64,000 nucleotides of DNA from Candidatus Omnitrophota bacterium (GCA_015233195.1 JADFYE010000012.1:989-64988); one strand, 5' to 3'. Positions 16,476 to 64,000 are shown, counted from the first letter of the stretch. Made by a program: numbers and translations. Notes: generated by a model from the letters alone, not told the origin.

Positions 16476-17252
16476 GTGGATTATTTTAATGCTATCATTT
16501 TAGGTGTGGTTGAAGGTATAACTGAGTTTTTGCCTATATCTTCAACCGGGCATCTGATCTTAACTTCTAAGATCTTACATTTAACAGAAACTGAATTTTT
16601 AAAAAGTTTCGAAATTGCTATTCAATTAGGAGCCATCCTTTCTGTTGTAGTACTTTATTGGCGCATGTTATTAGTCAATAAGAACATACTCAAACAACTA
16701 ACTGTAGCTTTTATTCCTACTGCAGTAATCGGTTTTGGATTATATAAGATTGTGAAAAAATTCTTTTTAGGTAACAGCGATATTGTTATCTGGGCGTTAT
16801 TTTTAGGCGGCATTTTTCTAGTAATATTTGAACTTGTGCATAAAGAAAATAACGCCAAAGATATCGAAAAATTAGAAGATATTAACTTAAAACAATCTTT
16901 TATAATCGGCATATTCCAATCTTTTGCCATAATACCTGGAGTTTCCAGGGCTGCTGCTACTATAATCGGCGGTCTAATATTAGGACTAAAGAGACAAACT
17001 ATAGTTGAATTTTCATTTTTACTGGCTGTACCAACAATGGGAGCAGCAGTAGCTTATGATTTAATAAAAAGTGCGCCAGCATTTTCTTCTGATCAATTTA
17101 TTTTTTTAATTATAGGATTTGTCGTGTCGTTCATTGTTGCCATAGGCGCAATAAAATTTTTGCTAGCATTCATTCAAAAAAATAATTTTGTGGCATTTGG
17201 ATTTTATCGAATTTTATTAGCTATTTTATTTATGTTCTTTATAAAACTGTAG
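16476..17252 (+). CDS. uppP: Undecaprenyl-diphosphatase (BacA/UppP)
   Basis: GTG start after RBS AAGGGGGAG. N-terminal signature ILGVVEGITEFLPISSTGHL and a polytopic protein of 258 aa. Confidence 0.95.
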   Translation: MDYFNAIILGVVEGITEFLPISSTGHLILTSKILHLTETEFLKSFEIAIQLGAILSVVVLYWRMLLVNKNILKQLTVAFIPTAVIGFGLYKIVKKFFLGNSDIVIWALFLGGIFLVIFELVHKENNAKDIEKLEDINLKQSFIIGIFQSFAIIPGVSRAAATIIGGLILGLKRQTIVEFSFLLAVPTMGAAVAYDLIKSAPAFSSDQFIFLIIGFVVSFIVAIGAIKFLLAFIQKNNFVAFGFYRILLAILFMFFIKL

Positions 17253-45599: not shown

Positions 45600-46160
45600 A
45601 TGAAAAAAATTAAATATTTAATTTCAGGAATGGTGTTGTGTGTAGTTATGTCTGGCTGTGCGATGTCGATGTGGACCAAGTTGGAAAATAAGGAATATTC
45701 AGACGGCTCTAGAGCGTTTAAGGCAATTATGCCTCAGGATTGGATGCGGTTAAATTATGATCGAGATTTTGTTTTGACGCATGATGGGTTAGCTTTAAAT
45801 TTGATTAATGTACACCGGATAAATCAAAAAAATCCTTTGGAATTCACAAAGAAAAAATATGCTGATAATATGATGATTACAGATTTGGCGGAAATTGAAT
45901 CAGATAATTTAAAAATGAATACAAATATGTTGCAGTTTTCAGTTTTATCAAATACCCCAATCGATATTTCAGGACGAGAAGCTTATCGCATAGAGTATCA
46001 ATATGAAAATAAAAACGGTTTGCCTATATCAGGAATTCAATGCGGATTTCAACATAAACAATGGATTTACCGTATTAAATATGAAGCAGCATCCCAACAT
46101 TATTTTTCTAGTCTAAAATCTGATTTTGAAGCATTTTTAAAATCATTCCAAACCATTTAG
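45600..46160 (+). CDS. Hypothetical lipoprotein (186 aa)
   Basis: Lipobox VMSG-C. It lies immediately after the M48 gene (4-nt gap). Confidence 0.55.
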   Translation: MKKIKYLISGMVLCVVMSGCAMSMWTKLENKEYSDGSRAFKAIMPQDWMRLNYDRDFVLTHDGLALNLINVHRINQKNPLEFTKKKYADNMMITDLAEIESDNLKMNTNMLQFSVLSNTPIDISGREAYRIEYQYENKNGLPISGIQCGFQHKQWIYRIKYEAASQHYFSSLKSDFEAFLKSFQTI

Positions 46161-46281
46161 CTAAACATTTTTTTACAATTTACTAACCAACTCCGCAGCA
46201 GACGCTATTGCGAGTACGCTGCATTTATTTCATTTGACACAATTTATTGATTAGCATATCCTTTTGATATGGAGGACAGAC

Positions 46282-47871
46282 GTGGCTAATAATAAATTTG
46301 ACAATATTACATCTGAAGAAGCTTATGATCTGTATAATAATTCTCCCTGCGGCTACCACTCCCTAAATAAAGATGGTGTAGTAGTACGGATCAATGATAC
46401 TGAACTTTCCTGGTTAGGCTATACCCGTGATGAAGTTGTTGAAAAGAAAAAATTTTCAGAATTTATGACTGAAAATAGCCGCAAAAAATTCTTAAACGCT
46501 TTCCAAATTTTTTTACAAACCGGTAAAGCCCAAGGTTTGACATTTGATATTATACGCAAGGACGGAAGTGTTTTTACAGTTTTAGCTAACGCCAGCGCGA
46601 TCTATGAAAAAAACGGTACTTTTATTATGAGCCGTTCTACATTAGTGGATATCACTGAACGTAAAAATATAGAAGAGAATCTTGAAGCCACAAAAGAATA
46701 CTTAGGTAAAATTATTGATTCCGTCGCTGATCCGATATTTGTAAAAGACCGTGAGCATAAATGGGTTTTATTGAACGACTCCTACTGTTCGTTTATGGGC
46801 TATAAACGGGAAGAATTGATCGGAAAATCCGATTATGATTTTTTTCCAATAAAAGAAGCCAAAGTATTTTGGGAAAAAGATGAAGAGGTTTTTGAAAGTG
46901 GTGAAGGAAATGTTAATGAAGAATTTTTTACTGATGCTTCAAAAATAACCAGAACAATCATAACCAAAAAAACTTTATACATCGACCACAAAGGCGCCAA
47001 ATTAATTGTTGGTATAATCCGCGACATTACTGAGCTAAAACGTACCACCGAAGAATTAAAAACTACTTACGAAAAATTAATAAACATCCAAGCTCGTTTA
47101 GTGCAATCTGAAAAAATGGCTTCTTTAGGTCAGTTAGCTGCCGGCGTTGCTCACGAGATCAATAATCCAGTAACCTATGTACTCAGTAATATCAGCGCTT
47201 TTCAAGATTATGAAAAAAAACTAAATGGATTCTTGCATGACCTTATAGAGTTATCTACAAATTCAAAATTTCAAAAACAAATAAACGAGTTAAATACAAA
47301 ATGGCAAGTAATGGATGTTTTTGATGATATGCCGGCATTAGTAGCCGAGACTTTTGAAGGGGTAGAACGTATAAAAAAAATCGTTCAAGACTTGCGAATG
47401 TTCGCGCATCCTACCAAAGGTGTTTTTAAATATGGTGATATTCATAAATGTATTGATCAAGCGTTGAACATTGTTTTTTGTGAGATTAAAGACCGCGTTC
47501 GCTTAATAAAAGAATTCGGCAATATTCCAAAAGTTTATTTTCAAGAACAACAAATGTCACAGGTATTTATAAATTTATTTGTCAATGCAGCACAAGCGAT
47601 AGAAAAAGAAGGTGAACTACGAGTTAAAACCTGCGCTGATGCTCAATATATTCATATTGAGATTGCAGATAATGGCGTAGGAATACCTCCTGATATCTTA
47701 CCTAAAATATTTGATCCGTTCTTCACTACCAAACCAGTCGGTCAAGGTACAGGGTTAGGTCTTTCGGTAGTACACGGAATTATCGAAGAGCATAAAGGCA
47801 CAATAAATGTTGAAAGCCATATCAACCATGGTACAACTTTCCGCATTAAACTGCCCATATCAAACAAATAA
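46282..47871 (+). CDS. Cytoplasmic tandem-PAS sensor histidine kinase
   Basis: GTG at 46282 lies 6 nt after GGAGG. There are two PAS-like segments, an H-box AAGVAHEINNP, and an ATPase domain with DNGVGIP and GTGLGLS. Confidence 0.88.
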   Translation: MANNKFDNITSEEAYDLYNNSPCGYHSLNKDGVVVRINDTELSWLGYTRDEVVEKKKFSEFMTENSRKKFLNAFQIFLQTGKAQGLTFDIIRKDGSVFTVLANASAIYEKNGTFIMSRSTLVDITERKNIEENLEATKEYLGKIIDSVADPIFVKDREHKWVLLNDSYCSFMGYKREELIGKSDYDFFPIKEAKVFWEKDEEVFESGEGNVNEEFFTDASKITRTIITKKTLYIDHKGAKLIVGIIRDITELKRTTEELKTTYEKLINIQARLVQSEKMASLGQLAAGVAHEINNPVTYVLSNISAFQDYEKKLNGFLHDLIELSTNSKFQKQINELNTKWQVMDVFDDMPALVAETFEGVERIKKIVQDLRMFAHPTKGVFKYGDIHKCIDQALNIVFCEIKDRVRLIKEFGNIPKVYFQEQQMSQVFINLFVNAAQAIEKEGELRVKTCADAQYIHIEIADNGVGIPPDILPKIFDPFFTTKPVGQGTGLGLSVVHGIIEEHKGTINVESHINHGTTFRIKLPISNK

Positions 47872-48411
47872 CATTGCTTTTTTAACTTTATCCGATATTT
47901 CTTTCCCAACTAAGTAATTTACGATTGCAAATGAAAAATCTGCAGCAGTTCCTGGACCTTGACTGGTAATGATGTTACCGTCAATAACCACTTTATCCGT
48001 CTTAACTTTGGTGCTTTTATTGAATAATGCTTCATCTCCAGGATAGCCCGTAGCTGACTTGTTATTCAAAATACCAGTTGGCGCAAGCACCTCAGCCGGA
48101 GAAGCACAGATTGCAGCTATCAATTTTTTTTCATTGAACATTTTATTGATTATTTGTTTAACTAAAGCAGAGGCTGCCAAATTTTTTGCGCCATTTGCAC
48201 CTCCAGGAAGAATTAAAGCGTCATAATTCAGATCATTGCTAGTAAGTATTTTATCAGTAAAAATTTTTACTAATCGAGCGCTAGCGATCTGTACGCTATC
48301 AAGACCAGCAATGGTCACATTTACCCCTGAACGCCGTAATATATCGATTGTAGCTATAGCTTCAATTTCTTCAAATCCATTTGCTAAAATAATCAGTGCT
48401 TTTTGTATCAT
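47860..48411 (-). CDS. DJ-1/PfpI (ThiJ/YajL) family protein
   Basis: Nucleophile-elbow motif AAICASP and LILPGG. The start was chosen at the second ATG (MIQKALIIL) after AAAGGA. Its 3' end overlaps the kinase gene's 3' end by 12 nt. Confidence 0.85.
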   Translation of the reverse strand: MIQKALIILANGFEEIEAIATIDILRRSGVNVTIAGLDSVQIASARLVKIFTDKILTSNDLNYDALILPGGANGAKNLAASALVKQIINKMFNEKKLIAAICASPAEVLAPTGILNNKSATGYPGDEALFNKSTKVKTDKVVIDGNIITSQGPGTAADFSFAIVNYLVGKEISDKVKKAMLFV

Positions 48412-48513
48412 ATCCGTTCCTTTCATTATATAAATATTTTAATTTACAGGTCTTAATATGGCAATTAAAATAGCCAGTCATTGATAAATCGCATTTATAT
48501 TTGAAAGGGTTTT

Positions 48514-49749
48514 ATGAGAAAACTGAAAAGTATTTTTTTAACAGTTTTAATAGTAACACTGTGTTTTATTTTATTTTTGGGTTTAATGGAAATTATTTTT
48601 CGTATGACTCGAGGCACACCAAATCCATTAGCTGACGTTACTCAAACCCGTTCTGATACTTTATTAACCCCGAATGAAATAATACACAATCGCTCCTCAA
48701 TAAATGGAGAATTTGAAACTACTATCCGCATAAATTCTTTAGGTTATCGCGGTCACGACTTTTCTGTTACTAAACCTCAAGGTTCAATCCGTATTTTAGC
48801 TATCGGAGATTCATTTACTTTTGGAGTAGGCGCAAACGATGATCAAACTATACCTGCAGTAATGGCGCACGAACTTATAGCCCAGGGATATACGGCGGAA
48901 GTTATTAACGCCGGCATTGGTCATGAGTCACCCATACGCCACTGGGATAATCTTGAACGTCTGCATTTAAAATACCATCCTGATATAGTACTTTTGTTTT
49001 TCGACCTTACTGATCTATGGGATGATTGGCATTGGGAGCGTCATGCGGTATGGAATAAACAAGGCATGATTGACAGGTTTGACCTGGCTTATATAAATGG
49101 CAAAAGGGACTGGTGGGCAACTTTGGTACAATATAGCGCGTTTTGCAAATGGTTTGATGAAAAAGGCATCCGCATGTTTGAAAAGCTTAACTTATTAGGA
49201 TTTAAAAAATATTCACAACTCAAAAAAGACGGCGCACGTGCCAAAGCAGAAATTATAAATTCATATAATAAAATACCAGATGATACGATCATAAAATTCG
49301 ACGGATTAGCATTAATGCGCGGAAGGGAAAGGTCCCGTCTGATTCTTAAGCATTGGGATCGGACCACAAAATACCTATCTAAAATCCGTGATCTATTAGC
49401 TGAAAAAAATATCCCTTTTATAATTGTAATGTATCCGCACGGCATTTATGTAGGCGAAGACCAGTGGAATGAAGGTCGTAAAACCTGGGGATTTGAACAA
49501 AATAAAAAATACACAGATTATTATCCATTTGAATTAATGGATCAGTACACAAAAAAAGCACAAATACCTTTTATAAATACCTTAAGCGGATTCTTGACTG
49601 CGCCTAAACAGAAATATTTTCACGACTGGGATGGACACATGACTGCTGCTGGATATAAACTGGTAGCAGAACAAGTTGTAGCTAATGCAGTATTTCAGAA
49701 CCTGTTAAAACAAACAGCATTGGGAGATAAAAACAATGCGCCACGTTAA
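48514..49749 (+). CDS. Membrane-anchored SGNH/GDSL-family hydrolase (411 aa)
   Basis: N-terminal TM anchor, block I ILAIGDSFTFGVG, and a C-terminal DWDGHMT (block V D-x-x-H). Confidence 0.75.
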   Translation: MRKLKSIFLTVLIVTLCFILFLGLMEIIFRMTRGTPNPLADVTQTRSDTLLTPNEIIHNRSSINGEFETTIRINSLGYRGHDFSVTKPQGSIRILAIGDSFTFGVGANDDQTIPAVMAHELIAQGYTAEVINAGIGHESPIRHWDNLERLHLKYHPDIVLLFFDLTDLWDDWHWERHAVWNKQGMIDRFDLAYINGKRDWWATLVQYSAFCKWFDEKGIRMFEKLNLLGFKKYSQLKKDGARAKAEIINSYNKIPDDTIIKFDGLALMRGRERSRLILKHWDRTTKYLSKIRDLLAEKNIPFIIVMYPHGIYVGEDQWNEGRKTWGFEQNKKYTDYYPFELMDQYTKKAQIPFINTLSGFLTAPKQKYFHDWDGHMTAAGYKLVAEQVVANAVFQNLLKQTALGDKNNAPR

Positions 49750-50836
49750 GAGTGCTTTAATTATTTTACTCATTACCGTAATATTTTTTGCTGGCTTGAA
49801 TATAATCGCTCTTTTATGGGCGAGAAATTATTATATGAACTTAGATACAGTAAATCGAAACCAAGCTGCAGTTTCATATGGTTATTTTAGACCTAACCAA
49901 TCCAGGACTATACTATTCCCAGGTATGAAACCTTATCATGCGACAGTTAATAATCTCGGCTTTAGAGATGTTGGAATTCAAATATCATCCTCAGATCTTA
50001 ATACAAAACAAAAAATTCTTACAGTTGGAGATTCATTAACCTTTGGTTTATTCATTGATGATGCCAAAACTTATCCGTATCTATTGCAGAAAGCTTTAAT
50101 TGAAACAAAACAGAACGCGATAGTTTTAAACGCTGGTATAGGCAATACCACTATCACTGACCATTTGGCTTATTTACAGAACAAAGGTTTAAGCCTGCAC
50201 CCTGACGTAGTCATCATTAATTTCTGCAGTAATGATATCGCTGAACTTTCAGGACGGTCAAAACCATTATATGGACAATTAATTTCCAAAACTTCAAATC
50301 CATTATCTCAATGGTGGCAAAATATGCCGCTTAACCGGTCTTTTAGACGATGGTACGTGCTCAATAAATACAACCATTGGCTGCATAAAATTAAAGATGA
50401 ACGAATAACTATAATCTTGAAGAATAAAAGCCGAAACCTGGATGACATATTATATGTATGCAAAAATTACTTTGCTCCGGATATAATTAAAACCCCGACC
50501 GATCCTAAAGTACTACAAAATTGGAATAAATATTTTTCAACCTTAGAACAAACTATAGATATCCTACAAAAAAATAATATAAAATTAATATTTTTTATCA
50601 CGCCTGAATTTCTTTCGGTTTTTAACCAGCTTGAATCCGGTTATCAAGAAAAATTAAAAACCTTTTTACAAGAACATAAAATACGTTATATTGATTTGTC
50701 GGATGAATTTAAAAAATATACAGGCGATAAAGTTTCTTTATTTAATGATCCTCCCCGGGATTATCATTTAAGCGGGTCCGGGAATAAATTATTAGTTGAA
50801 AAACTACTTCCAATCATTGAATCGAGCTTGAAATAA
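49736..50836 (+). CDS. Membrane-anchored SGNH/GDSL-family hydrolase (366 aa), paralogous to the preceding gene
   Basis: N-terminal TM anchor, block I ILTVGDSLTFGLF, and a C-terminal PRDYHLS (D-x-x-H). It overlaps the upstream gene by 14 nt. Confidence 0.75.
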   Translation: MRHVKSALIILLITVIFFAGLNIIALLWARNYYMNLDTVNRNQAAVSYGYFRPNQSRTILFPGMKPYHATVNNLGFRDVGIQISSSDLNTKQKILTVGDSLTFGLFIDDAKTYPYLLQKALIETKQNAIVLNAGIGNTTITDHLAYLQNKGLSLHPDVVIINFCSNDIAELSGRSKPLYGQLISKTSNPLSQWWQNMPLNRSFRRWYVLNKYNHWLHKIKDERITIILKNKSRNLDDILYVCKNYFAPDIIKTPTDPKVLQNWNKYFSTLEQTIDILQKNNIKLIFFITPEFLSVFNQLESGYQEKLKTFLQEHKIRYIDLSDEFKKYTGDKVSLFNDPPRDYHLSGSGNKLLVEKLLPIIESSLK

Positions 50837-50837
50837 T

Positions 50838-52661
50838 ATGCCAAAATATATTCTAGGTATTTCCGCGTTCTATCATGACTCTGCTGCAGCACTGATAAAA
50901 GACGGTGAAATAATCGCTGCAGCGCAAGAAGAACGTTTTACCCGAAAAAAACACGACCACAATTTTCCTAAACGCGCAGTTGAATTTTGTTTAGCTAAAG
51001 CCGGTATCACAGTCCTTGACCTGGCAGATGTAGTTTTCTATGATAAACCTTTCATAAAATTTGAACGCTTGCTTGAAACTTATTTAATGTTCGCACCTTT
51101 GGGTCTTAGGTCTTTCATTAAAGCCATGCCACTTTGGTTAAAACAAAAATTAAATTTAAACAAAACCATACGCAAAGAATTAGGTCATGATGTTAACGTG
51201 CTATTTGCTGATCATCACGAATCTCACGCAGCCAGCGCGTTTTACCCATCGCCATTTCAAAAAGCCGCGATTATAACTTTAGACGGAGTCGGGGAATGGT
51301 CAACTCTGACGTTTGGAATGGGTGAAGATAATAAAATATCTTTGTATAAAGAAATCCGTTTCCCGCATTCTTTAGGACTTTTATACTCTGCGTTCACTTA
51401 TTACACTGGTTTTAGGGTAAATTCTGGCGAATATAAATTAATGGGCTTAGCTCCTTATGGAGAGCCTACATATACTGAACTGATTAAAAAAGAACTGCTT
51501 GATATTCGCCCGGATGGATCGTTTAAACTTAACATGAAATATTTTGATTATTGTGCCGGCTTGACCATGATCAATAAAAAATTTTGCGATATTTTCGGTC
51601 GCCCAGCACGCAAACCCGAAGAAAAAATCGAGCAGTTCCATATGGACGTGGCTCGTTCAATTCAGGCAGTTACTGAAGAAATTATTCTTAAGATCGCCCA
51701 ACATGTAAAGCAAGAAACTAATGCTGAATATTTATGTTTGGCTGGAGGGGTCGCACTTAATTGTGTAGCTAACGGTAAAATCGCAGCCAGTGGTTTATTT
51801 AAACGAATCTGGATACAACCTGCAGCTTCTGATTCAGGCGGAGCGCTTGGTGCAGCATTAACAGTTTGGTACAATCATTATCAACAGCCTCGCCAAGCAG
51901 ATAACGTGCATGATATGCAAAAAGCATCTTTATTAGGTCCTGAATTCTCGAATGAAGAGGTGGAAACATTTTTAAAATCAAAAAATGTTAAATATACGAA
52001 ATTATCGGACGATGACCTATTTAAAAAAGCCGCAGATATAATAGCAGATGACAAAGTATTAGGCTGGGTTCAAGGTAGAATGGAATTTGGTCCTCGGGCA
52101 TTAGGCAGCAGAAGTATTTTAGGCGATCCTCGTTCAGAAAAAATGCAGACCACAATGAACGTTAAGATTAAATTCCGGGAATCCTTCAGACCATTTGCCC
52201 CTGCAATTATGTTAGAACACTCCGGTGAATATTTTAAATATTCAGACGAGAGCCCATATATGCTGCTCGTGACTTCGATTAATGATGATAAACGTTTTCC
52301 TATACCAAAAGATCAAAGCGGTTTATTAGGTTTACAAAAATTAAAAATAAAACGATCCGACCTTCCAGCCATAACTCATGTGGATTATTCTGCTCGGGTT
52401 CAAACTGTATCTAAGGAGGAAAACCCCCGCTTTTATAATGTGATAAACGCGTTTTATAAAAAAACCGGTTGTCCAGTAGTAATAAATACTTCATTTAACG
52501 TGCGCGGTGAGCCAATAGTTTGCACGCCCGAAGACGCGTACCGATGTTTATTGCGTACCAACATGGATTACCTAATTATTGAAAATTGTGTTATAGATCG
52601 GCGAGACCAAAAACAAGACGAAATAAAAGTAGGAGACTTAAGTGGATTTGACCCAGATTAA
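50838..52661 (+). CDS. Carbamoyltransferase (NodU/CmcH family)
   Basis: N-terminus ILGISAFYHDSAAALIKDGEIIAAAQEERFTRKKHD, a length of 607 aa, and a C-terminal YrdC-like/Kae1-like architecture typical of the family. Confidence 0.9.
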   Translation: MPKYILGISAFYHDSAAALIKDGEIIAAAQEERFTRKKHDHNFPKRAVEFCLAKAGITVLDLADVVFYDKPFIKFERLLETYLMFAPLGLRSFIKAMPLWLKQKLNLNKTIRKELGHDVNVLFADHHESHAASAFYPSPFQKAAIITLDGVGEWSTLTFGMGEDNKISLYKEIRFPHSLGLLYSAFTYYTGFRVNSGEYKLMGLAPYGEPTYTELIKKELLDIRPDGSFKLNMKYFDYCAGLTMINKKFCDIFGRPARKPEEKIEQFHMDVARSIQAVTEEIILKIAQHVKQETNAEYLCLAGGVALNCVANGKIAASGLFKRIWIQPAASDSGGALGAALTVWYNHYQQPRQADNVHDMQKASLLGPEFSNEEVETFLKSKNVKYTKLSDDDLFKKAADIIADDKVLGWVQGRMEFGPRALGSRSILGDPRSEKMQTTMNVKIKFRESFRPFAPAIMLEHSGEYFKYSDESPYMLLVTSINDDKRFPIPKDQSGLLGLQKLKIKRSDLPAITHVDYSARVQTVSKEENPRFYNVINAFYKKTGCPVVINTSFNVRGEPIVCTPEDAYRCLLRTNMDYLIIENCVIDRRDQKQDEIKVGDLSGFDPD

Positions 52662-53237: not shown

Positions 53238-54293
53238 ATGCAACAGATACAGCGTATAGTGATTTTTCGGACTGATCGAATCGGTGAAGTTATATTAACA
53301 ACACCTCTGATCAAAGCATTAAAAGAAAAATATCCTGCTGCACATATAACTTTCTTCACTTCTAAACTCGCAGAAGAAATCCTGCAATTTGTACCTAGGA
53401 TTGATTCAATACACACCTTTGACACACTATCAAAACCTAATTTTTTTGATTTCTTAAAACTTATCCTCCAATTAAGAAAAGGTAATTTCGATCTCACCCT
53501 AATTAGCAACCCGCACAAATATATTCATCTAGCTGCATTTTTATCTGGCATAAAAAACCGAATCGGCTTTTCACGAAAATGGGGGAAATGGCTTTTAACT
53601 CATTCAATTAAAGATGTGCGGTCTGAAGGAAAAATACATGAAATACAAGCTAATTTACAATTATTAAATATCCTGGATATAAAACAAGACCTGATAAAAC
53701 CCGAAATATCCGTGCCTGAAATATTCAAAGAAGATTTTAAACAACAAATATGTGAATTGAACCTTGATCCAACTAAACCAATAATTTCGATACATCCTGG
53801 AAGCAGTTATATTTATAAACGCTGGCCTAAAGAATATTTTATTGATCTCATCCATCAACTATTAAAATCATATTCAGCACAAATTTGTATTAATGGTGAT
53901 GCATCAGAAAAAAAACTATGCGAGGACATTGCGTCACATTTCTCCTCTAACGTTGTATCATTAGCCGGTAAGTTCACGCTAAAAGATTTAACCATATTTT
54001 TAAGTTTATCAAACTTGGTAATTACTAATGATAGCGGACCAATGCATATCGCTGATGCCTTGAATAAAAACTTGATAGCTATATTTGGACGGGGAAATGA
54101 GGGTACAGGACCAAATCGTTGGGGACCAAAAGGTCCTAACAGTTACATTCTGCATAAAGTGCCAGGGCAATGTAAAAAATGCCAAGACCAAGATTGCCTG
54201 TATGATTATGAATGTTTAAAAATGACAAAACCGCAGGAAGTATTAGACTTGATTGCTAAAAATCAGCTATTAGGTAAATCTAAAGAAGACTGA
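53238..54293 (+). CDS. Family 9 glycosyltransferase (LPS heptosyltransferase-like)
   Basis: N-terminus IVIFRTDRIGEVILTTPLIKALKEKYP and C-terminal ITNDSGPMHIA, the GT9 signature. Confidence 0.85.
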   Translation: MQQIQRIVIFRTDRIGEVILTTPLIKALKEKYPAAHITFFTSKLAEEILQFVPRIDSIHTFDTLSKPNFFDFLKLILQLRKGNFDLTLISNPHKYIHLAAFLSGIKNRIGFSRKWGKWLLTHSIKDVRSEGKIHEIQANLQLLNILDIKQDLIKPEISVPEIFKEDFKQQICELNLDPTKPIISIHPGSSYIYKRWPKEYFIDLIHQLLKSYSAQICINGDASEKKLCEDIASHFSSNVVSLAGKFTLKDLTIFLSLSNLVITNDSGPMHIADALNKNLIAIFGRGNEGTGPNRWGPKGPNSYILHKVPGQCKKCQDQDCLYDYECLKMTKPQEVLDLIAKNQLLGKSKED

Positions 54294-55621
54294 TTTCTTC
54301 CAATAACTAAAATAACTGCATTAAATAAAAATCCAATTACAATCAAAACATTACCAAGCACATTAGCCCCATTCATCATTACTATCTTACCGCTTACACT
54401 CAAACATCCGCCTACAATTACCGCTAGCATTACAAACCATTCATTAATTTTCCAACCTGCTAACCCTGCCAACACCGGACAAACAAACGCTCCAGTAAAA
54501 AATGATAAACCCAATAATAAAGAATCAATTATAGAATTCGTTAATAACGCTATGCCTAAACTAAAAATTGCCAACAAAGTAATAAGCCCACGAGTTAAAA
54601 TAATGGAAGACGTCTTATGAATATTTTTGAATAAGTCAGTCAATATTGTAGCTGAAGTTAATAAAGTACTATTAGCTGATGACATAAAAGCTGATAAAAA
54701 GAAAATTATAATTAAACCCCAGGACCATACTGGTAAAAGATTTTTAAGCATTTGAGATAATCCAGCGAACGATCGCGAATCAATATCAGGATAATAATGA
54801 TTAGCATAAACACCGATAAAACATAAACCCCATGCAATCGGTATTAAAATCAAAGCACTTAACCATACGCTAACCTGCGCGACTTTCTCATTTTTAGCAC
54901 AAAATATACGGGCATAAATGTCCGGTCCGACTAAAAAAGCAGTAGAATAAGTTAATATTAAAGTCAGCAAGTTAAAAATCGAAAATTTTTCAGAAAAAGG
55001 AAATGAATGAGGCGCCAATTGCCATAATGGTAGGTTCAACTTTTTTAATGCAAAACCACAAATAATACATAGTCCTACTAAAATCAACACAAAATGATAT
55101 TTGTCTGTCCGTATAACTGACAATTGTCCGCCTAAAAATGTATATAACGCAAATACCAACGTAGATAACACTACTGCCCAAAAATAAGATAAGCCGATAA
55201 AAATATTCAAAATTACTGCTGACCCAATTATCTGTGCTGCGATCACGCTGGTCCAAGCAATAGGTATGGTTAAGGAAGCAATAAATTTTACTTTTGGTCC
55301 ATAAAAATCATTTAACAATTCTGGAAGAGTAAATTTTCCAAGCCGATTAACTTTTTTTACTACAAGAGTTAAACTTATGAGACCAATAGAAGCTGACATC
55401 AAAAACCATGCAGCTGCCCAACCATATTTTAAGCTCATTGAAACCGTACCCAATATGGCTGAACTTCCAATTATAGTAGCTAATAAAGAGGACGTCGTTG
55501 CCCATATACCGTTATTTTTTCCTGCTACAAAAAAATTTAACGGGTCAAATGAGCGTTTAAAAACTAATACGCCTAAACCAATAAAAAATATTGAATAAAT
55601 AGTTAACCAAATAATTTCCAT
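54263..55621 (-). CDS. Sodium:solute symporter family transporter
   Basis: 452 aa with about 12-13 TM helices. The N-terminal pattern FFVAGKNNGIWATTSSLLATIIGSSAILG is typical of SSF transporters. It overlaps the GT9 gene's 3' end convergently by 31 nt. Confidence 0.7.
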   Translation of the reverse strand: MEIIWLTIYSIFFIGLGVLVFKRSFDPLNFFVAGKNNGIWATTSSLLATIIGSSAILGTVSMSLKYGWAAAWFLMSASIGLISLTLVVKKVNRLGKFTLPELLNDFYGPKVKFIASLTIPIAWTSVIAAQIIGSAVILNIFIGLSYFWAVVLSTLVFALYTFLGGQLSVIRTDKYHFVLILVGLCIICGFALKKLNLPLWQLAPHSFPFSEKFSIFNLLTLILTYSTAFLVGPDIYARIFCAKNEKVAQVSVWLSALILIPIAWGLCFIGVYANHYYPDIDSRSFAGLSQMLKNLLPVWSWGLIIIFFLSAFMSSANSTLLTSATILTDLFKNIHKTSSIILTRGLITLLAIFSLGIALLTNSIIDSLLLGLSFFTGAFVCPVLAGLAGWKINEWFVMLAVIVGGCLSVSGKIVMMNGANVLGNVLIVIGFLFNAVILVIGRNQSSLDLPNS

Positions 55622-55753
55622 GAATGTTTATAATAAAGAAATCCAATTCCGAGTCAAGCATCATTTTTACTTCTGCTAAACTATATAATAAACTTTTACT
55701 TTTATCGGTTTTTATATACAATATTAAAACTTAACCATTAGGAAGAACCATTC

Positions 55754-59898: not shown

Positions 59899-59922
59899 TT
59901 GTTGAGCAAACTGGAGATTATT

Positions 59923-60297
59923 ATGATTAAATGGATATATTTAATAATCGGCGGAATTGTTGGAACAGCTTCGAGATACAGCTTAGCTGGATTTGTACAA
60001 GAAAAATGCGTAACAACTTTTCCTTGGGGAACTTTATCGGTAAATCTTATTGGCTGTTTAATCGTCGGATTTTTAGATGTTTTATTTGAAAAAAAATTCT
60101 TATTGAGTATAAATGCCCGTATTTTATTAATGACCGGTTTCTGCGGCGCATTTACTACTTTTTCTACCCTAATATTAGAAACTTCAAATTTAATCAAAAG
60201 CAATCAAATAACCTATGCATTAGGTAATATTTTAATAAGTTTTGTATTTGGTTTTGCCGCCTTCAAATTAGGCGCAGTTATTGCAGAATTTATCTAA
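59923..60297 (+). CDS. crcB: Fluoride ion channel CrcB/Fluc
   Basis: Start at ATG 59923 after GGAG. Motifs GGIVGTASRY and GFCGAFTTFST, about 124 aa and 4 TM helices. Confidence 0.85.
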   Translation: MIKWIYLIIGGIVGTASRYSLAGFVQEKCVTTFPWGTLSVNLIGCLIVGFLDVLFEKKFLLSINARILLMTGFCGAFTTFSTLILETSNLIKSNQITYALGNILISFVFGFAAFKLGAVIAEFI

Positions 60298-60314
60298 ACT
60301 TAAAGGAGTTATTT

Positions 60315-60644
60315 ATGAAAATCCCTTCCGAGGGCAGATTATTAAGAATCTTCATTGGTGAACAAGATAAGTGGCAAGGCGTACCGCTTTATGAAGCTAT
60401 TGTTATTCTGGCACGCAGAGAAAAAATGGCGGGGGCAACAGTAATAAAAGGATGCATGGGTTTTGGATGTAAAAGCCATCTTCATACAACCAAAATTCTT
60501 AGAATGTCTGAAGATCTGCCAATGATAATTGAAATTGTTGACAGCAAAGAAAAGATCGATAATTTTTTACCGCATCTAGATGAAATGGTGAAAGAAGGCT
60601 TAGTCACCCTCGAAGACATAAACGTCAATATTTATCGTGCCTAA
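60315..60644 (+). CDS. DUF190 (PII-like fold) protein commonly linked to crcB
   Basis: RBS AAGGAG. The N-terminal pattern LLRIFIGEQDKWQGVPLYEAIV and a length of 109 aa fit DUF190. It is adjacent to crcB. Confidence 0.75.
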   Translation: MKIPSEGRLLRIFIGEQDKWQGVPLYEAIVILARREKMAGATVIKGCMGFGCKSHLHTTKILRMSEDLPMIIEIVDSKEKIDNFLPHLDEMVKEGLVTLEDINVNIYRA

Positions 60645-60653
60645 AAATCCCAA

Positions 60654-63600
60654 TCAAAACAATTCTTTTTGCGTGGACTTATCCGAATGTTTTTGCGTTT
60701 TATCTTTTGAACTTTCTAATAAATTCCGTTCGATTAAATCTATGAACCGGCTGCGTTCAAGTTTATATTCATGCCCAAATAAAAACCGTTTGTTGGAACT
60801 TGTTAAATAAATAAAATTCTGCGCTCTGGTCAAACCCACATAAAACAAACGGCATTCTTCTTTTATATCAGCTTTATTTTTTTCAAATAAAGTATAGGGT
60901 ATAATGCCTTCTTCGCAGCCCACAATAAAAACACATTTAAATTCCAAGCCTTTAGCAGCGTGCAGAGTAAGTAAAGAAACTTTTTCCATATTGATATTGT
61001 GCAAATCAATTTTTTTATTCAAACTTATAGTTTCTAAAAAAACCTTCATATCATTATTACTCATCCGAGCCATATTTACCGCCTTATCAATATCATCGGA
61101 AGCAAGAGGAGTTATAAAATAATTTTGGCATATTAAATTTACTTTTTCGTGCAGCGGCAAGTTTGCCATTTCTATAAAACCATGGTCAAGATCAAGCGGT
61201 TTCAATAATTCATTGTTCTCGATCTTATCCCGCAAAAATTTATTATTAGGGTCTTTAATAAAACTCAAAATATCGACGATAGCCTTAAAAGGCTCTATTT
61301 CAATTAGTAAGTTGTCATCACTGATTTGATACGGAATGTTATGGCTATGTAAAGCATCTACAATCGCAGGCGTCTGATGTTTACTGCGATACAGTATGGC
61401 AAAATCAGATAAACTATTTATATGTTTTGACTGATCTCCTGATGCAAGGTTACGGTCAATAGAATAAAAACTGGTGCCGCCTATCATTTGTTCAATAGTG
61501 CGAGCCACAAATTCCGCTTCACTTTTTTCAGTGCGGCTGCTATGGATATTTATATTAACACCTTCGTGCAAACCCTCGAAAGCCTCAGAAGCGCCCATCG
61601 GATCTATAACATTATTTGACGCCTTAAGTATTTTATTTGAACAACGATAACTTTGTCTTAATTGATAAACTTTGGCATTGGGATAATCATTAATAAACTC
61701 TTTAATATATTTTACGTCGGAACCACGAAACCCATAAATTGCTTGATTAGGATCACCAACTACAAAAATATTCTGAAGGAAAGAACTTAATAATTTCAAA
61801 AGCTGATACTGATTAAAATTTATATCCTGATATTCATCTATCAAAATCCATTTGAACCGATTCTGATATTTAGCCTGCAATTTTGTATCTGCCATCAAAC
61901 GCAAACACGGCAAATATATTAAATCCTCAAAATCCAACAATGTATTATCGCTCAAATATTTCTGATACTTATCAAACACAATTTTTAATTCTAAATCATC
62001 AATTTGTGTTGACGTCAATAAATTTTGCTTTAAGCTTTCAATTTTTAAACATAATTGTTTGGTTTTCCGGTCATTATTAGTAATGTCTTTGACAATCCGC
62101 ACTTTATCTTCTGGAGAAATAATTATAAAGGCTGAACCATTTATAGCTGCCTCAGTTAAAATTGAGTAACCTAATCCATGAAAAGTTTTGATAGTAATAT
62201 TTTCTGCTGCTTCAACACCAGATTCTTTTTTAACGCGGTCTTGAATCTCTGCGGCTGCTTTATTGGTGAAAGTAATAGCCAAGATTTCATCCGGTTTACT
62301 TTTATTATTCGTTAGCAAATAATTTATACGCGATACAATAGTTTTAGTTTTTCCTGTTCCTGGTCCAGCTAAAACCAACGCCGGACCATTTGCATGCTTT
62401 ACAGCTTCTAATTGCTGAGTATTAAGCCCGTTTTTTTTATCTATTTCAATTTTAACTTTTGGGTCGGTTTTAAATTGAGGGGAAGTCTTTTTATAATGTG
62501 TTAAATCAAAATTTATTAGTTCGCGTTTGGGACCAGGTTCAACAAATTTAATATTACTGAATAATGAGTCCCCTTGAGTCAATGAATTAGCTTCCGACTC
62601 ATTAAAAACCTTAATCACTCCATATTCTCCGTCATAACCCTCCTCAATATAAACTCGACGTTCACGCATTCTTTTTATTGCTTCACCTAAAATTGGGTTA
62701 CCTTTTTTTACAAGACTGTTGACCGGAATGTCTAATAAAATTTTTAATTCCGGACCAAACTTACGGATCAAAGCGTGATACTCATTAATAATTTTTTTAC
62801 TCCCGGGTCCGACATTAAATATTTCACTCAGAATCTCCGGCAAAGGTATGATTGAATAGAAAGGAAGTCTATTAGGCTTTTCCATTATATTTGTTCGGTC
62901 TGAAAGCTCAACAATACGATTAACTACTCCTATAGTTACAGGTTTTTTACATTTCGTACAAATACTGCCATGTTTAAACGTTTCGATTGGGTCCCACTGT
63001 ACATTACATTTTCTATGACCATCAAAGTGATATTTTCCTTCTTGAGGGAACAAATCAATGGTCCCTAAAAATTTATCTGCGTCGCCAGTTTTTAACGCTG
63101 CAATCATGGCTCCATACGACAAGTCCGTATTAAATATATTAGCGTTGCGTCCTAATTTATCCGGTGAATGCGCGTCAGAATTTGAAATCAAAGTATATTT
63201 ATCCAAGAACGAACACATCCAATTAAGCGGAGCATCAGTTGATAAACCAGTTTCAACCGCGTAAATATTTTTAGTCAGATCTTCAAAACATTCTTCAATA
63301 CTGTCAAACCCTGATTTGGAACCTAATACTGAAAACCAAGGCGTCCAAATATGCGCAGGTATAAAAAATATATCCGGTGACACAGACAAAGAAAGATCTA
63401 ATAAATTTTTGCAATCCATACCTATAATCGGACGACCGTCTGATTTTAAATTCGCCCCCAAATCAATTAATTTATGGCTTATCTTTTCTGCAGTCTTAAA
63501 ATCTGGAGATAAAATTACACTATGGACTTTTCTAACCCGATCATTTCTTTTAAATATCGTGCTGATCTCCGCGCTTAATAAAAACCGCGGCTCAATATCC

Positions 63601-63845
63601 GGAAGGTCAATAAAATAAGGGTGAGTTTTTAATATAAATTCTTTTTTAAGTTTAAATAGCCCTGGTTCTGCAGGCTGCAATTTTTCTTTTAACTCTTTAA
63701 TCCATCCTGGATGAGTGAAATCACCAGTAGCGACTACTTTTACACCTTTAATTCTTGCCCAAAGGTCTAAAAATTCCGGCATAAGTTCTTTACTGGTAGC
63801 CAAAGAACAATGAGAGTGAATATGAAAATCAGTTATAAATCGCAT
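60654..63845 (-). CDS. Endonuclease Q-like PHP nuclease fused to a UvrD/PcrA-type SF1 helicase (about 1064 aa)
   Basis: N-terminal motifs are ITDFHIHSHCS, GDFTHPGW, EGKYHFDGHRKC and CTKCKKP (PHP metal site plus zinc finger). C-terminal helicase motifs are AGPGTGKT (Walker A), LIDEYQDIN, VGDPNQAIYGFRG, QSYRC, LHAAKGLEF and YVGLTRA. The start could also be 63887, since neither candidate has a clear RBS. Confidence 0.85.
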   Translation of the reverse strand: MRFITDFHIHSHCSLATSKELMPEFLDLWARIKGVKVVATGDFTHPGWIKELKEKLQPAEPGLFKLKKEFILKTHPYFIDLPDIEPRFLLSAEISTIFKRNDRVRKVHSVILSPDFKTAEKISHKLIDLGANLKSDGRPIIGMDCKNLLDLSLSVSPDIFFIPAHIWTPWFSVLGSKSGFDSIEECFEDLTKNIYAVETGLSTDAPLNWMCSFLDKYTLISNSDAHSPDKLGRNANIFNTDLSYGAMIAALKTGDADKFLGTIDLFPQEGKYHFDGHRKCNVQWDPIETFKHGSICTKCKKPVTIGVVNRIVELSDRTNIMEKPNRLPFYSIIPLPEILSEIFNVGPGSKKIINEYHALIRKFGPELKILLDIPVNSLVKKGNPILGEAIKRMRERRVYIEEGYDGEYGVIKVFNESEANSLTQGDSLFSNIKFVEPGPKRELINFDLTHYKKTSPQFKTDPKVKIEIDKKNGLNTQQLEAVKHANGPALVLAGPGTGKTKTIVSRINYLLTNNKSKPDEILAITFTNKAAAEIQDRVKKESGVEAAENITIKTFHGLGYSILTEAAINGSAFIIISPEDKVRIVKDITNNDRKTKQLCLKIESLKQNLLTSTQIDDLELKIVFDKYQKYLSDNTLLDFEDLIYLPCLRLMADTKLQAKYQNRFKWILIDEYQDINFNQYQLLKLLSSFLQNIFVVGDPNQAIYGFRGSDVKYIKEFINDYPNAKVYQLRQSYRCSNKILKASNNVIDPMGASEAFEGLHEGVNINIHSSRTEKSEAEFVARTIEQMIGGTSFYSIDRNLASGDQSKHINSLSDFAILYRSKHQTPAIVDALHSHNIPYQISDDNLLIEIEPFKAIVDILSFIKDPNNKFLRDKIENNELLKPLDLDHGFIEMANLPLHEKVNLICQNYFITPLASDDIDKAVNMARMSNNDMKVFLETISLNKKIDLHNINMEKVSLLTLHAAKGLEFKCVFIVGCEEGIIPYTLFEKNKADIKEECRLFYVGLTRAQNFIYLTSSNKRFLFGHEYKLERSRFIDLIERNLLESSKDKTQKHSDKSTQKELF

Positions 63846-64000
63846 AAGTTTATATAATAGAAACAATTTTACCTTTATGCAAATCATTCTTTATGTAACG
63901 ATAGTTTTATTGCTTTTTTAAGAATTTTAGTTTATCCTATATATATTTTATTTTTTCCAATATAACCATTTTGAAGGAGATATTTATGAATTTTATGAAA

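Follow-up and report, generated by a model that had tools for sequence, protein, structure and literature searches.

A widespread bacterial family uniting Endonuclease Q, a UvrD/PcrA-like helicase and a putative β-clamp-binding tail, as represented at an Omnitrophota locus

We analyzed a stretch of 64,000 nucleotides (hereafter the window) from a Candidatus Omnitrophota bacterium (GCA_015233195.1, JADFYE010000012.1:989-64988). Close to its right-hand end, a gene on the minus strand codes for a single polypeptide that combines an N-terminal Endonuclease Q (EndoQ) with a C-terminal UvrD/PcrA-like helicase of superfamily 1A (SF1A), here termed the EndoQ-helicase. A scan of the window for open reading frames (ORFs) showed that the gene occupies one unbroken frame of 1077 codons (60654..63887), with two in-frame ATGs near the 5' end, at 63887 and 63845. 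The latter is almost certainly the true start, giving a predicted protein of 1063 amino acids, because three observations agree. First, an NCBI protein from a Candidatus Omnitrophica metagenome-assembled genome (MAG), annotated as a 'UvrD-helicase domain-containing protein' (P0001, 1063 aa), corresponds to 63845..60657 with 100% identity and 100% query coverage. Second, the first methionine is near-invariant in our alignment (A2). Third, the N-terminus M-x-F/W-I/T-x-D-x-H-I-H is found without an extension in 10 of the 13 full-length relatives checked. A start at 63887, yielding 1077 aa, was rejected: the 14 added residues have no counterpart in the homologues. All residue numbers given below count from the ATG at 63845. 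The motifs by which the original prediction, an earlier reading of this DNA by a model, had recognized the nuclease half, namely DFHIHSHCS, GDFTHPGW, EGKYHFDGHRKC and CTKCKKP, are each found in the protein.

The N-terminal module covers all three domains of EndoQ. Residues 6-416 align to residues 6-385 of the archaeal PfuEndoQ with an E-value of about 1e-46 (phmmer against the PDB entries 5zb8/7k30). In a Foldseek search of the PDB with an AlphaFold2 (AF2) model, the N-terminal half superimposes on 5zb8/PfuEndoQ with a template modeling (TM) score of 0.87-0.88 and a root-mean-square deviation of 3.0-3.7 Å. The NCBIfam model TIGR00375 is matched with an E-value of 5e-45, over model positions 72-374 only, and the score of 154.6 bits does not reach the curated whole-protein cut-off of 326.6 bits; we presume that this model, a 'hypothetical equivalog', is tuned to stand-alone proteins.

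Structural and mutational work on PfuEndoQ has identified H8, H10, E76, H84, H139 and D193 as metal ligands, R114 and H195 as essential, W144 as a wedge, and H139, G169 and S171 as residues of the base pocket (PMC5961232, PMC8307549). In the alignment, the six ligands correspond to H8, H10, E93, H108, H165 and D224 of the EndoQ-helicase, R114/H195 to R138/H226, and W144/G169/S171 to W170/G200/S202. Judged by this correspondence, the EndoQ is complete, with the catalytic and base-pocket residues all present; the original prediction had allowed that the N-terminal domain might lack the catalytic residues on alignment, and no such loss was found. We assessed conservation over two sets of homologues, 120 close relatives (~50% identity) and 128 diverse full-length cluster representatives (35-50% identity). 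H8 and H10 are invariant (120/120 close and 127/129 diverse homologues), as are E93, H108, H165, D224, R138 and H226 in the 120 close and, alignment gaps aside, the 129 diverse sequences. The pocket residues G200 and S202 are likewise invariant in both sets, bar one or two outliers per column in the diverse one. The wedge W170 (63336-63338, minus strand) is invariant in the close relatives and is replaced by histidine in 13 of 129 diverse long-form representatives, which may point to a sub-clade that handles lesions differently. The Zn-binding site has the form His-Cys3 in all 120 close and in 128 of 129 diverse homologues, as against Cys4 in PfuEndoQ; from the residues involved, it is predicted to be a variant of the four-ligand site rather than a loss, with all ligands competent to bind Zn.

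The C-terminal half contains a full set of SF1A helicase elements. It is recognized by the Pfam models UvrD-helicase (PF00580; E-value 8e-71, 239.3 bits against a cut-off of 23) and UvrD_C (PF13361; E-value 2e-38, 133.3 bits against a cut-off of 25.6), with AAA_19 also above its gathering score, and it matches PcrA (1pjr) with an E-value of 7e-76. Its predicted structure resembles the DNA-bound, closed form of UvrD (2is6; TM 0.71-0.72) more closely than the apo form (TM 0.59). K499 and T500 of the Walker A motif are invariant (120/120 close, 129/129 diverse), and D670, E671 and Q673 of motif II are invariant or nearly so in both sets. The Q/Y/R of motif III, the R of motif IV, the H/K/G/E of motif V and the T/R of motif VI are also invariant in the 120 close relatives, one gapped sequence at motif VI aside. 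Among the 128 diverse representatives there are one or two outliers per active-site column and at most seven at motifs V and VI. Thus, the profile, PDB and Foldseek matches bear out the central claim of the original prediction, that a full EndoQ and a full SF1A helicase lie on one polypeptide.

Among the NCBIfam helicase models the closest are PcrA, Rep and UvrD, with scores of 372.8, 366.5 and 306.3 bits against cut-offs of 911.2, 951.45 and 1144.45, respectively. The 2B region is ~60 residues shorter than in PcrA, the equivalent of PcrA residues 407-557 spanning ~86 aa. The alignment to PcrA stops at its residue 651 of 724 and is followed by a disordered tail of 15 aa, with no counterpart to PcrA residues 652-724, which form the Tudor-like RNA-polymerase-binding tail. 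The module therefore has neither a full-size 2B domain nor a PcrA-type C-terminal tail. A further peculiarity is an insert in helicase domain 2A (residues 789-797; 61455-61481, minus strand), with the form GG-x2-F-x-S-x-D, which is absent from PcrA, UvrD and Rep. Its residues G789, G790, F793, S795 and D797 are invariant and the consensus MGGxxFFSxDS is present in 119 of 120 close relatives; in its strict form the motif occurs in only 30 of 128 diverse representatives. The insert falls in a low-confidence loop predicted to be disordered, with a predicted local distance difference test (pLDDT) score below 50 at residues 792-805, and could be a docking or DNA-contact element.

The two halves are joined by a linker that is mostly variable. 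Its one conserved patch, R441-x-x-I-N-F446-D-L (residues 441-449; 62499-62525, minus strand), in which F446 is invariant, occurs in 89 of 120 close relatives and 4 of 128 diverse ones; a predicted helix (448-459) follows it, and pLDDT drops below 50 at residues 460-471. The full-length AF2 model, built from 61 homologues, has a mean pLDDT of 79.4 and a predicted TM score (pTM) of 0.58, and Foldseek found no solved chain in the PDB that covers both halves.

At the extreme C-terminus we found a conserved motif, Q1059-K-E-L-F1063, which had gone unnoticed in the original prediction and resembles the β-sliding-clamp-binding consensus. Q1059 is invariant, and L1062 and F1063 are at least 90% conserved. 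A tail of the form Qxx[LMIV][FLWY] within three residues of the C-terminus is present in 115 of 120 close and 102 of 128 diverse full-length homologues, most commonly as QLSLF, QLDLF, QLKLF or QMSLF; QKELF is a slightly off-consensus variant of QL[S/D]LF. The tail (residues 1049-1063) is predicted to be disordered (pLDDT <50), as expected of a short linear motif. The archaeal EndoQ has a PCNA-interacting protein (PIP) box at its extreme C-terminus, binds PCNA with a dissociation constant of 55 nM and is stimulated in its cleavage by PCNA, and Shiraishi et al. (2016, PMC4858679) state that bacterial EndoQ homologues have β-clamp-binding consensus sequences towards their C-terminal end. The putative clamp motif points to a coupling with replication or repair. 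The coordinates of these features are collected in Table 1.

Table 1. Features of the EndoQ-helicase gene and its upstream region (window coordinates).
Feature	Coordinates	Strand	Basis
Complete coding sequence, long-form EndoQ-helicase, 1063 aa + TGA stop (60654-60656)	60654..63845	-	ORF, identity to P0001, M1, N-termini of relatives
Endonuclease Q module, residues 1-417: PHP catalytic, Zn-binding and C-terminal helical domains	62595..63845	-	phmmer, Foldseek, TIGR00375
PHP motif D6-F-H8-I-H10, H8/H10 equivalent to PfuEndoQ metal ligands H8/H10	63816..63830	-	Alignment
Zn-binding site H277-x2-C280 ... C296-x2-C299	62949..63017	-	Alignment to PfuEndoQ C249/C252/C268/C271
Inter-domain linker, residues 418-473 (~55 aa)	62427..62594	-	Conservation profile, AF2
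SF1A UvrD/PcrA-like helicase module, residues 474-1045, short 2B domain	60711..62426	-	Pfam, PcrA match, Foldseek, motifs
Walker A/motif I A-G-P-G-T-G-K499-T500	62346..62369	-	Sequence
Motif II (Walker B) D670-E-Y-Q-D	61824..61838	-	Sequence
Putative β-sliding-clamp-binding motif Q1059-K-E-L-F1063	60657..60671	-	Conservation profile; consensus QL[S/D]LF
Sigma-70-like promoter candidate TTTGCA-18-TATTAT, ending 8 nt before ATG 63845	63854..63883	-	Sequence scan; frequency as in shuffles

We then surveyed the phyletic spread of the fusion. A scan of one genome per GTDB species with six narrow peptide patterns, from which 80 loci were kept, showed that relatives are encoded in at least 224 species-representative genomes from at least 15 phyla; wherever the contig permits it, the match in these 80 loci runs unbroken over the whole length. 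The relatives come from Omnitrophota, Armatimonadota, Cloacimonadota, Planctomycetia, Bacteroidota, Marinimicrobia, Calditrichota and Spirochaetota, and further representatives come from Desulfobacterota/Geobacterales, Ignavibacteria, Aminicenantes, KSB1, Aerophobetes, Clostridia, Patescibacteria and a Rickettsiales endosymbiont. The closest relative, at 65% identity, is from another Omnitrophota genome. All 120 close and 128 diverse database proteins share the architecture, at ~1000-1250 aa, and both active sites are essentially invariant across these 248 homologues, which span 35-65% identity. Such co-conservation over this range of identity and at least 15 phyla speaks for selection on the combination itself. 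A phmmer search with the EndoQ domain against 1.84 billion cluster representatives recovered 992 proteins at E ≤ 1e-30; among the best 150 of these 992 (clusters at 50% identity), 128 are of fused length (≥980 aa). Thus, the fusion, which the original prediction had presented as unusual, defines a large and widespread bacterial family, and the accompanying premise that EndoQ is a stand-alone archaeal and rare bacterial enzyme is at odds with these database counts and was already outdated by the 34 long bacterial homologues in Supplementary Figure S1 of PMC4858679.

Indeed, the long proteins have been in view since 2016. That figure (Shiraishi et al. 2016, Sci Rep 6:25532) lists 44 bacterial EndoQ homologues with a clamp motif: 10 short forms with the motif at residues ~401-464, and 34 long forms of about 945-1244 aa with the motif at residues 941-1244. 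The latter include proteins from Cloacimonetes (1072 and 1073 aa), Desulfobacter, Spirochaeta, Desulfovibrio and Zymomonas, among them Cloacimonetes WP_029157127 (1073 aa), Geobacter metallireducens WP_004512662 (1075 aa) and Desulfobacter curvatus WP_020586011 (1088 aa). Our Cloacimonadota loci encode proteins of 1072-1073 aa ending in QQxLF, and the figure has proteins of 1072/1073 aa ending in QMRLF/QQKLF. Judged by length, taxa and C-terminal motif, the window protein appears to belong to this long-form family. Miyazono et al. (2018, PMC5961232) cite a division of EndoQ proteins into three families 'based on the domain organization', of which families 2 and 3 are bacterial. The long form is probably one of these two families of Shiraishi et al. 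2017, and that paper probably names the helicase domain. The only bacterial EndoQ enzymes that we found reported as assayed are those of Bacillus, and that of B. pumilus is reported to nick DNA at deoxyuridine (dU), deoxyinosine (dI) and apurinic/apyrimidinic (AP) sites like the archaeal enzyme (PMC5961232, PMC6202378). Full-text searches of the open-access literature found no paper describing a bacterial EndoQ protein as a helicase fusion. The long-form protein and its clamp motif were thus catalogued in 2016, and the family is apparently uncharacterized.

What might the combination do? EndoQ cuts immediately 5' of dU, dI, deoxyxanthosine (dX) and AP sites and leaves a 3'-OH and a lesion-bearing 5'-phosphate. 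In nucleotide excision repair (NER), the accepted geometry after 5' incision is that UvrD moves on the intact strand and the lesion strand is peeled off. We consider it fairly probable that the long-form EndoQ serves a clamp-associated alternative excision repair, in which a nick 5' of dU, dI or an AP site is followed by unwinding from that nick. On this proposal, the DnaN sliding clamp would recruit the protein or hold it on DNA, mirroring the archaeal EndoQ-PCNA interaction through the C-terminal PIP box. The EndoQ module would flip out the dU, dI, dX or AP nucleotide and cut the phosphodiester immediately on its 5' side, leaving the 3'-OH and the lesion-bearing 5'-phosphate. The tethered helicase would then load in cis at the nick and move 3'-5' on the intact complementary strand, thereby peeling off the lesion-bearing downstream strand, and a 5' flap nuclease or exonuclease, a polymerase and a ligase would complete the repair. 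Being covalently attached, the helicase would dispense with a dedicated loader of the MutL or UvrB kind, and the clamp would bring in first the enzyme itself and afterwards polymerase and ligase. In effect, the incision-plus-UvrD step of NER or mismatch repair (MMR) would here reside on a single polypeptide and be applied to the alternative excision repair of deaminated bases.

Several published observations accord with such a scheme. PfuEndoQ stays bound to its nicked product (PMC5961232), and such retention would keep a fused helicase at the nick. For the steps after EndoQ nicking, published models invoke either strand displacement by a polymerase together with FEN1 or, in a branch put forward in the original EndoQ paper, 'removal by helicase activity' (PMC4357722, Fig. 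10 and its legend). The 'nick-and-unwind' idea of the original prediction is plausible on these sequence grounds, since both active sites are co-conserved and a 5' nick fits the 3'-5' polarity of the helicase. Taken a step further, the protein might be a self-contained, clamp-tethered initiator, delivered by the clamp behind the replisome or to repair sites, in which the product-bound EndoQ loads its own helicase without a loader; this more specific version we advance as a tentative possibility. The short 2B, the 2A insert and the absence of an equivalent of PcrA residues 652-724 may be adaptations of the motor for unwinding from a nick.

Other points weigh against this proposal. We found no biochemical study of a long-form member in the accessible literature, and we therefore infer the substrate, the polarity and the coupling, as we do the binding to the clamp. 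The helicase is, by its bit scores far below the equivalog cut-offs, a distinct UvrD-like subfamily rather than an ortholog of PcrA, UvrD or Rep, and its regulation may differ owing to the short 2B. In the AF2 model each half is well folded, but at a pTM of 0.58 the geometry between them is unreliable and no nuclease-helicase interface is defined. The two activities could act independently.

The alternative that takes up this last point holds that the chain carries two uncoupled activities, a clamp-associated accessory helicase with PcrA/UvrD/Rep-like roles (fork clearance, NER, MMR) and an EndoQ that nicks on its own account, the fusion merely securing co-expression and co-localization at the clamp. 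The long, poorly conserved linker, predicted to be flexible, would suit it, as would a pTM that suggests no fixed interface and a helicase half nearest to PcrA, Rep and UvrD among all helicase models. Short bacterial EndoQs with a clamp motif also exist (10 of the 44 in Supplementary Figure S1 of PMC4858679), which means that a fused helicase is no precondition for EndoQ to work with the clamp. However, across at least 15 phyla and identities of 35-65% the architecture is strictly kept with both active sites intact, and a helicase that lacks the region after PcrA residue 651 and scores far below the equivalog cut-offs is not simply a housekeeping PcrA or UvrD. On balance, we judge uncoupled activities to be unlikely.

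A second alternative is that the protein is an anti-phage nuclease-helicase, in which phage DNA that contains uracil or is otherwise atypical would be nicked by EndoQ and attacked processively with the help of the helicase, by analogy with Nhi, Gabija or RecBCD-like degradation. Nuclease-helicase fusions are a recurrent theme in defense, and the original prediction had drawn an analogy to Nhi and Gabija-type pairings. For the Bacillus EndoQ, which the phage inhibitor Ugi does not block, a part in defense has been suggested (PMC8307549). The helicase half of the window protein also matches many PADLOC profiles for GajB (best E-value 4.5e-84). These matches are confined to the helicase half, and the GajB score of 281 bits lies below those of PcrA (373) and Rep (366), which identifies them, at the level of profile comparison, as generic UvrD similarity; none of the PADLOC models listed covers the EndoQ half.

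The genomic context speaks against this alternative as well. In the window, the EndoQ-helicase gene converges on a DUF190-CrcB fluoride-resistance pair (59899-60644, plus strand), with the stop codons 9 nt apart (60645-60653). Beyond this pair lie a regulator with HTH_17 and PTS_EIIA_2 domains, which precedes crcB, a flavodoxin-like protein, a response regulator, a phosphofructokinase and a sodium:solute symporter. These neighbors are of a housekeeping kind, and a PADLOC scan of them and of the protein itself gave no support for a defense system. Across 62 related loci, clustering of the neighbors revealed no conserved operon partner (polymerase, ligase, flap nuclease or DnaN) or any other conserved neighbor, the most frequent cluster being transporters at 5 of 62 loci. 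A PADLOC scan of 150 immediately flanking genes gave at most two matching genes for any one family, and GajA is not among the 25 most frequent of the 65 families listed; in Pfam, LptF/LptG (7) and cation efflux (4) lead the list. Repair genes in this set comprise MPG glycosylase (2), AlkD-like proteins (2) and a DnaQ-like exonuclease, too few to claim an association. A search of 50,697 phage records with the EndoQ domain (tblastn) gave no match, and one of 72,556 plasmid records gave a single match, to a stand-alone EndoQ on a 733-kb Brevibacillus replicon; the best 80 matches in IMG/VR cover the helicase half only, and none reaches the EndoQ domain. Placement in defense islands was thus not seen at these loci, and the analogy to Nhi and Gabija finds no footing in neighbors, PADLOC enrichment or viral records. 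The conserved tail is of a kind typical of replication and repair proteins rather than defense effectors. A role in defense is hence very improbable, and the non-mobile, non-defense context together with the clamp motif favors a chromosomal replication or repair function.

Finally, an artefactual fusion through a frameshift, a mis-assembly or read-through of adjacent genes, conceivable since the source is a MAG contig and two related loci have truncated ORFs in which sequencing errors or contig ends may be involved, is practically negligible and was rejected, given one uninterrupted ORF in the window, the recurrence of this architecture and length across hundreds of assemblies made independently, isolate genomes among the long forms of PMC4858679 Fig. 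S1, and the presence of the family-conserved linker and C-terminal motifs. The two truncated loci, L074 (Aminicenantes, a long-read MAG) and L071 (Patescibacteria), have ORFs of 632 and 414 aa, although tblastn matches span nearly the whole query; they are probably products of sequencing indels or contig-edge effects rather than real split genes.

As to how the EndoQ-helicase gene is expressed, the original prediction rightly saw no obvious ribosome-binding site and a TATTAT box just upstream of the ATG at 63845. We found no Shine-Dalgarno sequence upstream of this ATG, including the interval between TATTAT and ATG; clear sites of the GGAG type precede many operon-first plus-strand genes in the window. 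The mRNA is possibly leaderless or has a very short leader, with which the sequence is compatible. The promoter itself stays a candidate, since promoter-like sites in the region (15) are no commoner than in shuffled sequences (15.5) and so are not distinguishable from background. No terminator-like hairpin was found in 60400-64000. The upstream intergenic region, 140 nt long, is shared with a divergent plus-strand gene whose ATG at 63986 follows a strong Shine-Dalgarno sequence, GAAGGAG (63973-63979), at 6 nt, and which runs off the window end.

The symporter gene (54263-55621) has a similar upstream arrangement: a near-consensus sigma-70 promoter, TTGACT-16-TATTAT, lies within 55622-55670 (minus strand), followed by 8 nt and the ATG, and no Shine-Dalgarno sequence was found between TATTAT and ATG. 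The spacing of TATTAT, 8 nt and ATG is common to both genes, and their transcripts may be leaderless mRNAs in this Omnitrophota genome.

The rest of the window is dominated by plus-strand genes: of 53 ORFs of at least 90 aa, 49 are on the plus and four on the minus strand, one of the latter (125 aa) being doubtful. The original prediction had counted three minus-strand genes. No second UvrD/PcrA or EndoQ gene was found within the 64 kb. A c-di-AMP riboswitch (Rfam RF00379; 16324-16459, plus strand) is the sole Rfam match at gathering threshold in the window; it matches the full-length model with 68.7 bits against a gathering score of 38 and lies 17 nt upstream of an ORF at 16476..17252. At the same threshold, no fluoride riboswitch was detected. 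The cumulative GC skew climbs from position 1 to ~48 kb, reaching 1.72, and then drops to the window end. The turn, at ~46000-52000, has no matching switch in gene orientation, the genes staying on the plus strand, and may mark a replication terminus or origin or a rearrangement boundary. Outside the window, at the locus of the closest relative, a DnaQ-like 3'-5' exonuclease of the RNase_T family (L001:6285-7073, minus strand; Pfam E-value 2e-21) is encoded two genes upstream of the ortholog.

If the version with a self-contained, clamp-tethered initiator is correct, the fusion would act as a 'Rosetta stone' that points to a UvrD-type helicase as the missing step downstream of EndoQ, and many uncultured anaerobic phyla would rely on the long-form EndoQ for the repair of dU and dI. 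The combination with a clamp tail hints that EndoQ works together with the sliding clamp and a 3'-5' SF1A helicase, and the idea of coupling can be tested with one recombinant protein. The distribution also corrects the common view of EndoQ as confined to Euryarchaeota and 'a few bacteria'. The value of these findings is limited by the listing of the long proteins and their clamp motif in 2016 and by the familiarity of nuclease-helicase fusions in general; there is nothing unexpected here for a specialist who knows the EndoQ papers of 2016-2018, and the interest, which is moderate, lies in a model for the steps after EndoQ.

It remains to place the window protein among known systems. Gabija (GajB/GajA) and Nhi likewise pair a UvrD-like helicase with a nuclease, but one of a fold unrelated to EndoQ; the window gene has neither a GajA/OLD partner nor a defense-island context, and its product is set apart by the clamp-binding motif and by having no association with mobile elements. 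In AddA, RecB and AdnB a UvrD-like SF1A motor is, as here, covalently joined to a nuclease. However, their nuclease is of the PD-(D/E)xK type, sits at the C-terminus and works on DNA ends as part of multi-subunit complexes, whereas the nuclease of the window protein is an N-terminal, PHP-fold, lesion-specific nickase, and its gene has no conserved partner. The AddA and RecB models match the motor region only, structural likeness is lower (TM 0.3-0.5 in Foldseek), and the window protein ends ~15 aa past the helicase core without a C-terminal PD-(D/E)xK domain. UvrD, PcrA and Rep (2IS6, 1PJR, 1UAA) share the helicase motifs and the 1A/1B/2A/2B fold (TM about 0.71, 28-32% identity) and differ in lacking the N-terminal nuclease, the 2A insert and the terminal clamp motif and in having a 2B domain ~60 aa longer.

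On the nuclease side, the stand-alone bacterial EndoQs (Bacillus pumilus/B. subtilis YqxK-type; Brevibacillus WP_031414379, 393 aa) share the EndoQ core at ~25% identity to the EndoQ domain of the window protein and have no helicase; the Brevibacillus protein has, unlike the window protein, a C4 zinc site and no C-terminal QxxLF. The archaeal enzymes (PfuEndoQ PF1551, TkoEndoQ TK0887; 5ZB8, 7K30) share, at ~27-28% identity, the three domains, the metal ligands, the R/H pair and the base pocket, and they too have a clamp-interaction motif at the extreme C-terminus. They differ in the first Zn ligand, which is Cys there and His in the window protein, and in ending on a PIP box without a motor, whereas the window protein ends on a bacterial QxxLF after an extra helicase module of 590 aa. 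Closest of all are the long-form homologues of Shiraishi et al. 2016, of which the window protein appears to be an Omnitrophota member with the tail variant QKELF: in length class, in the taxa of our related loci and in the C-terminal β-clamp consensus we detected no difference.

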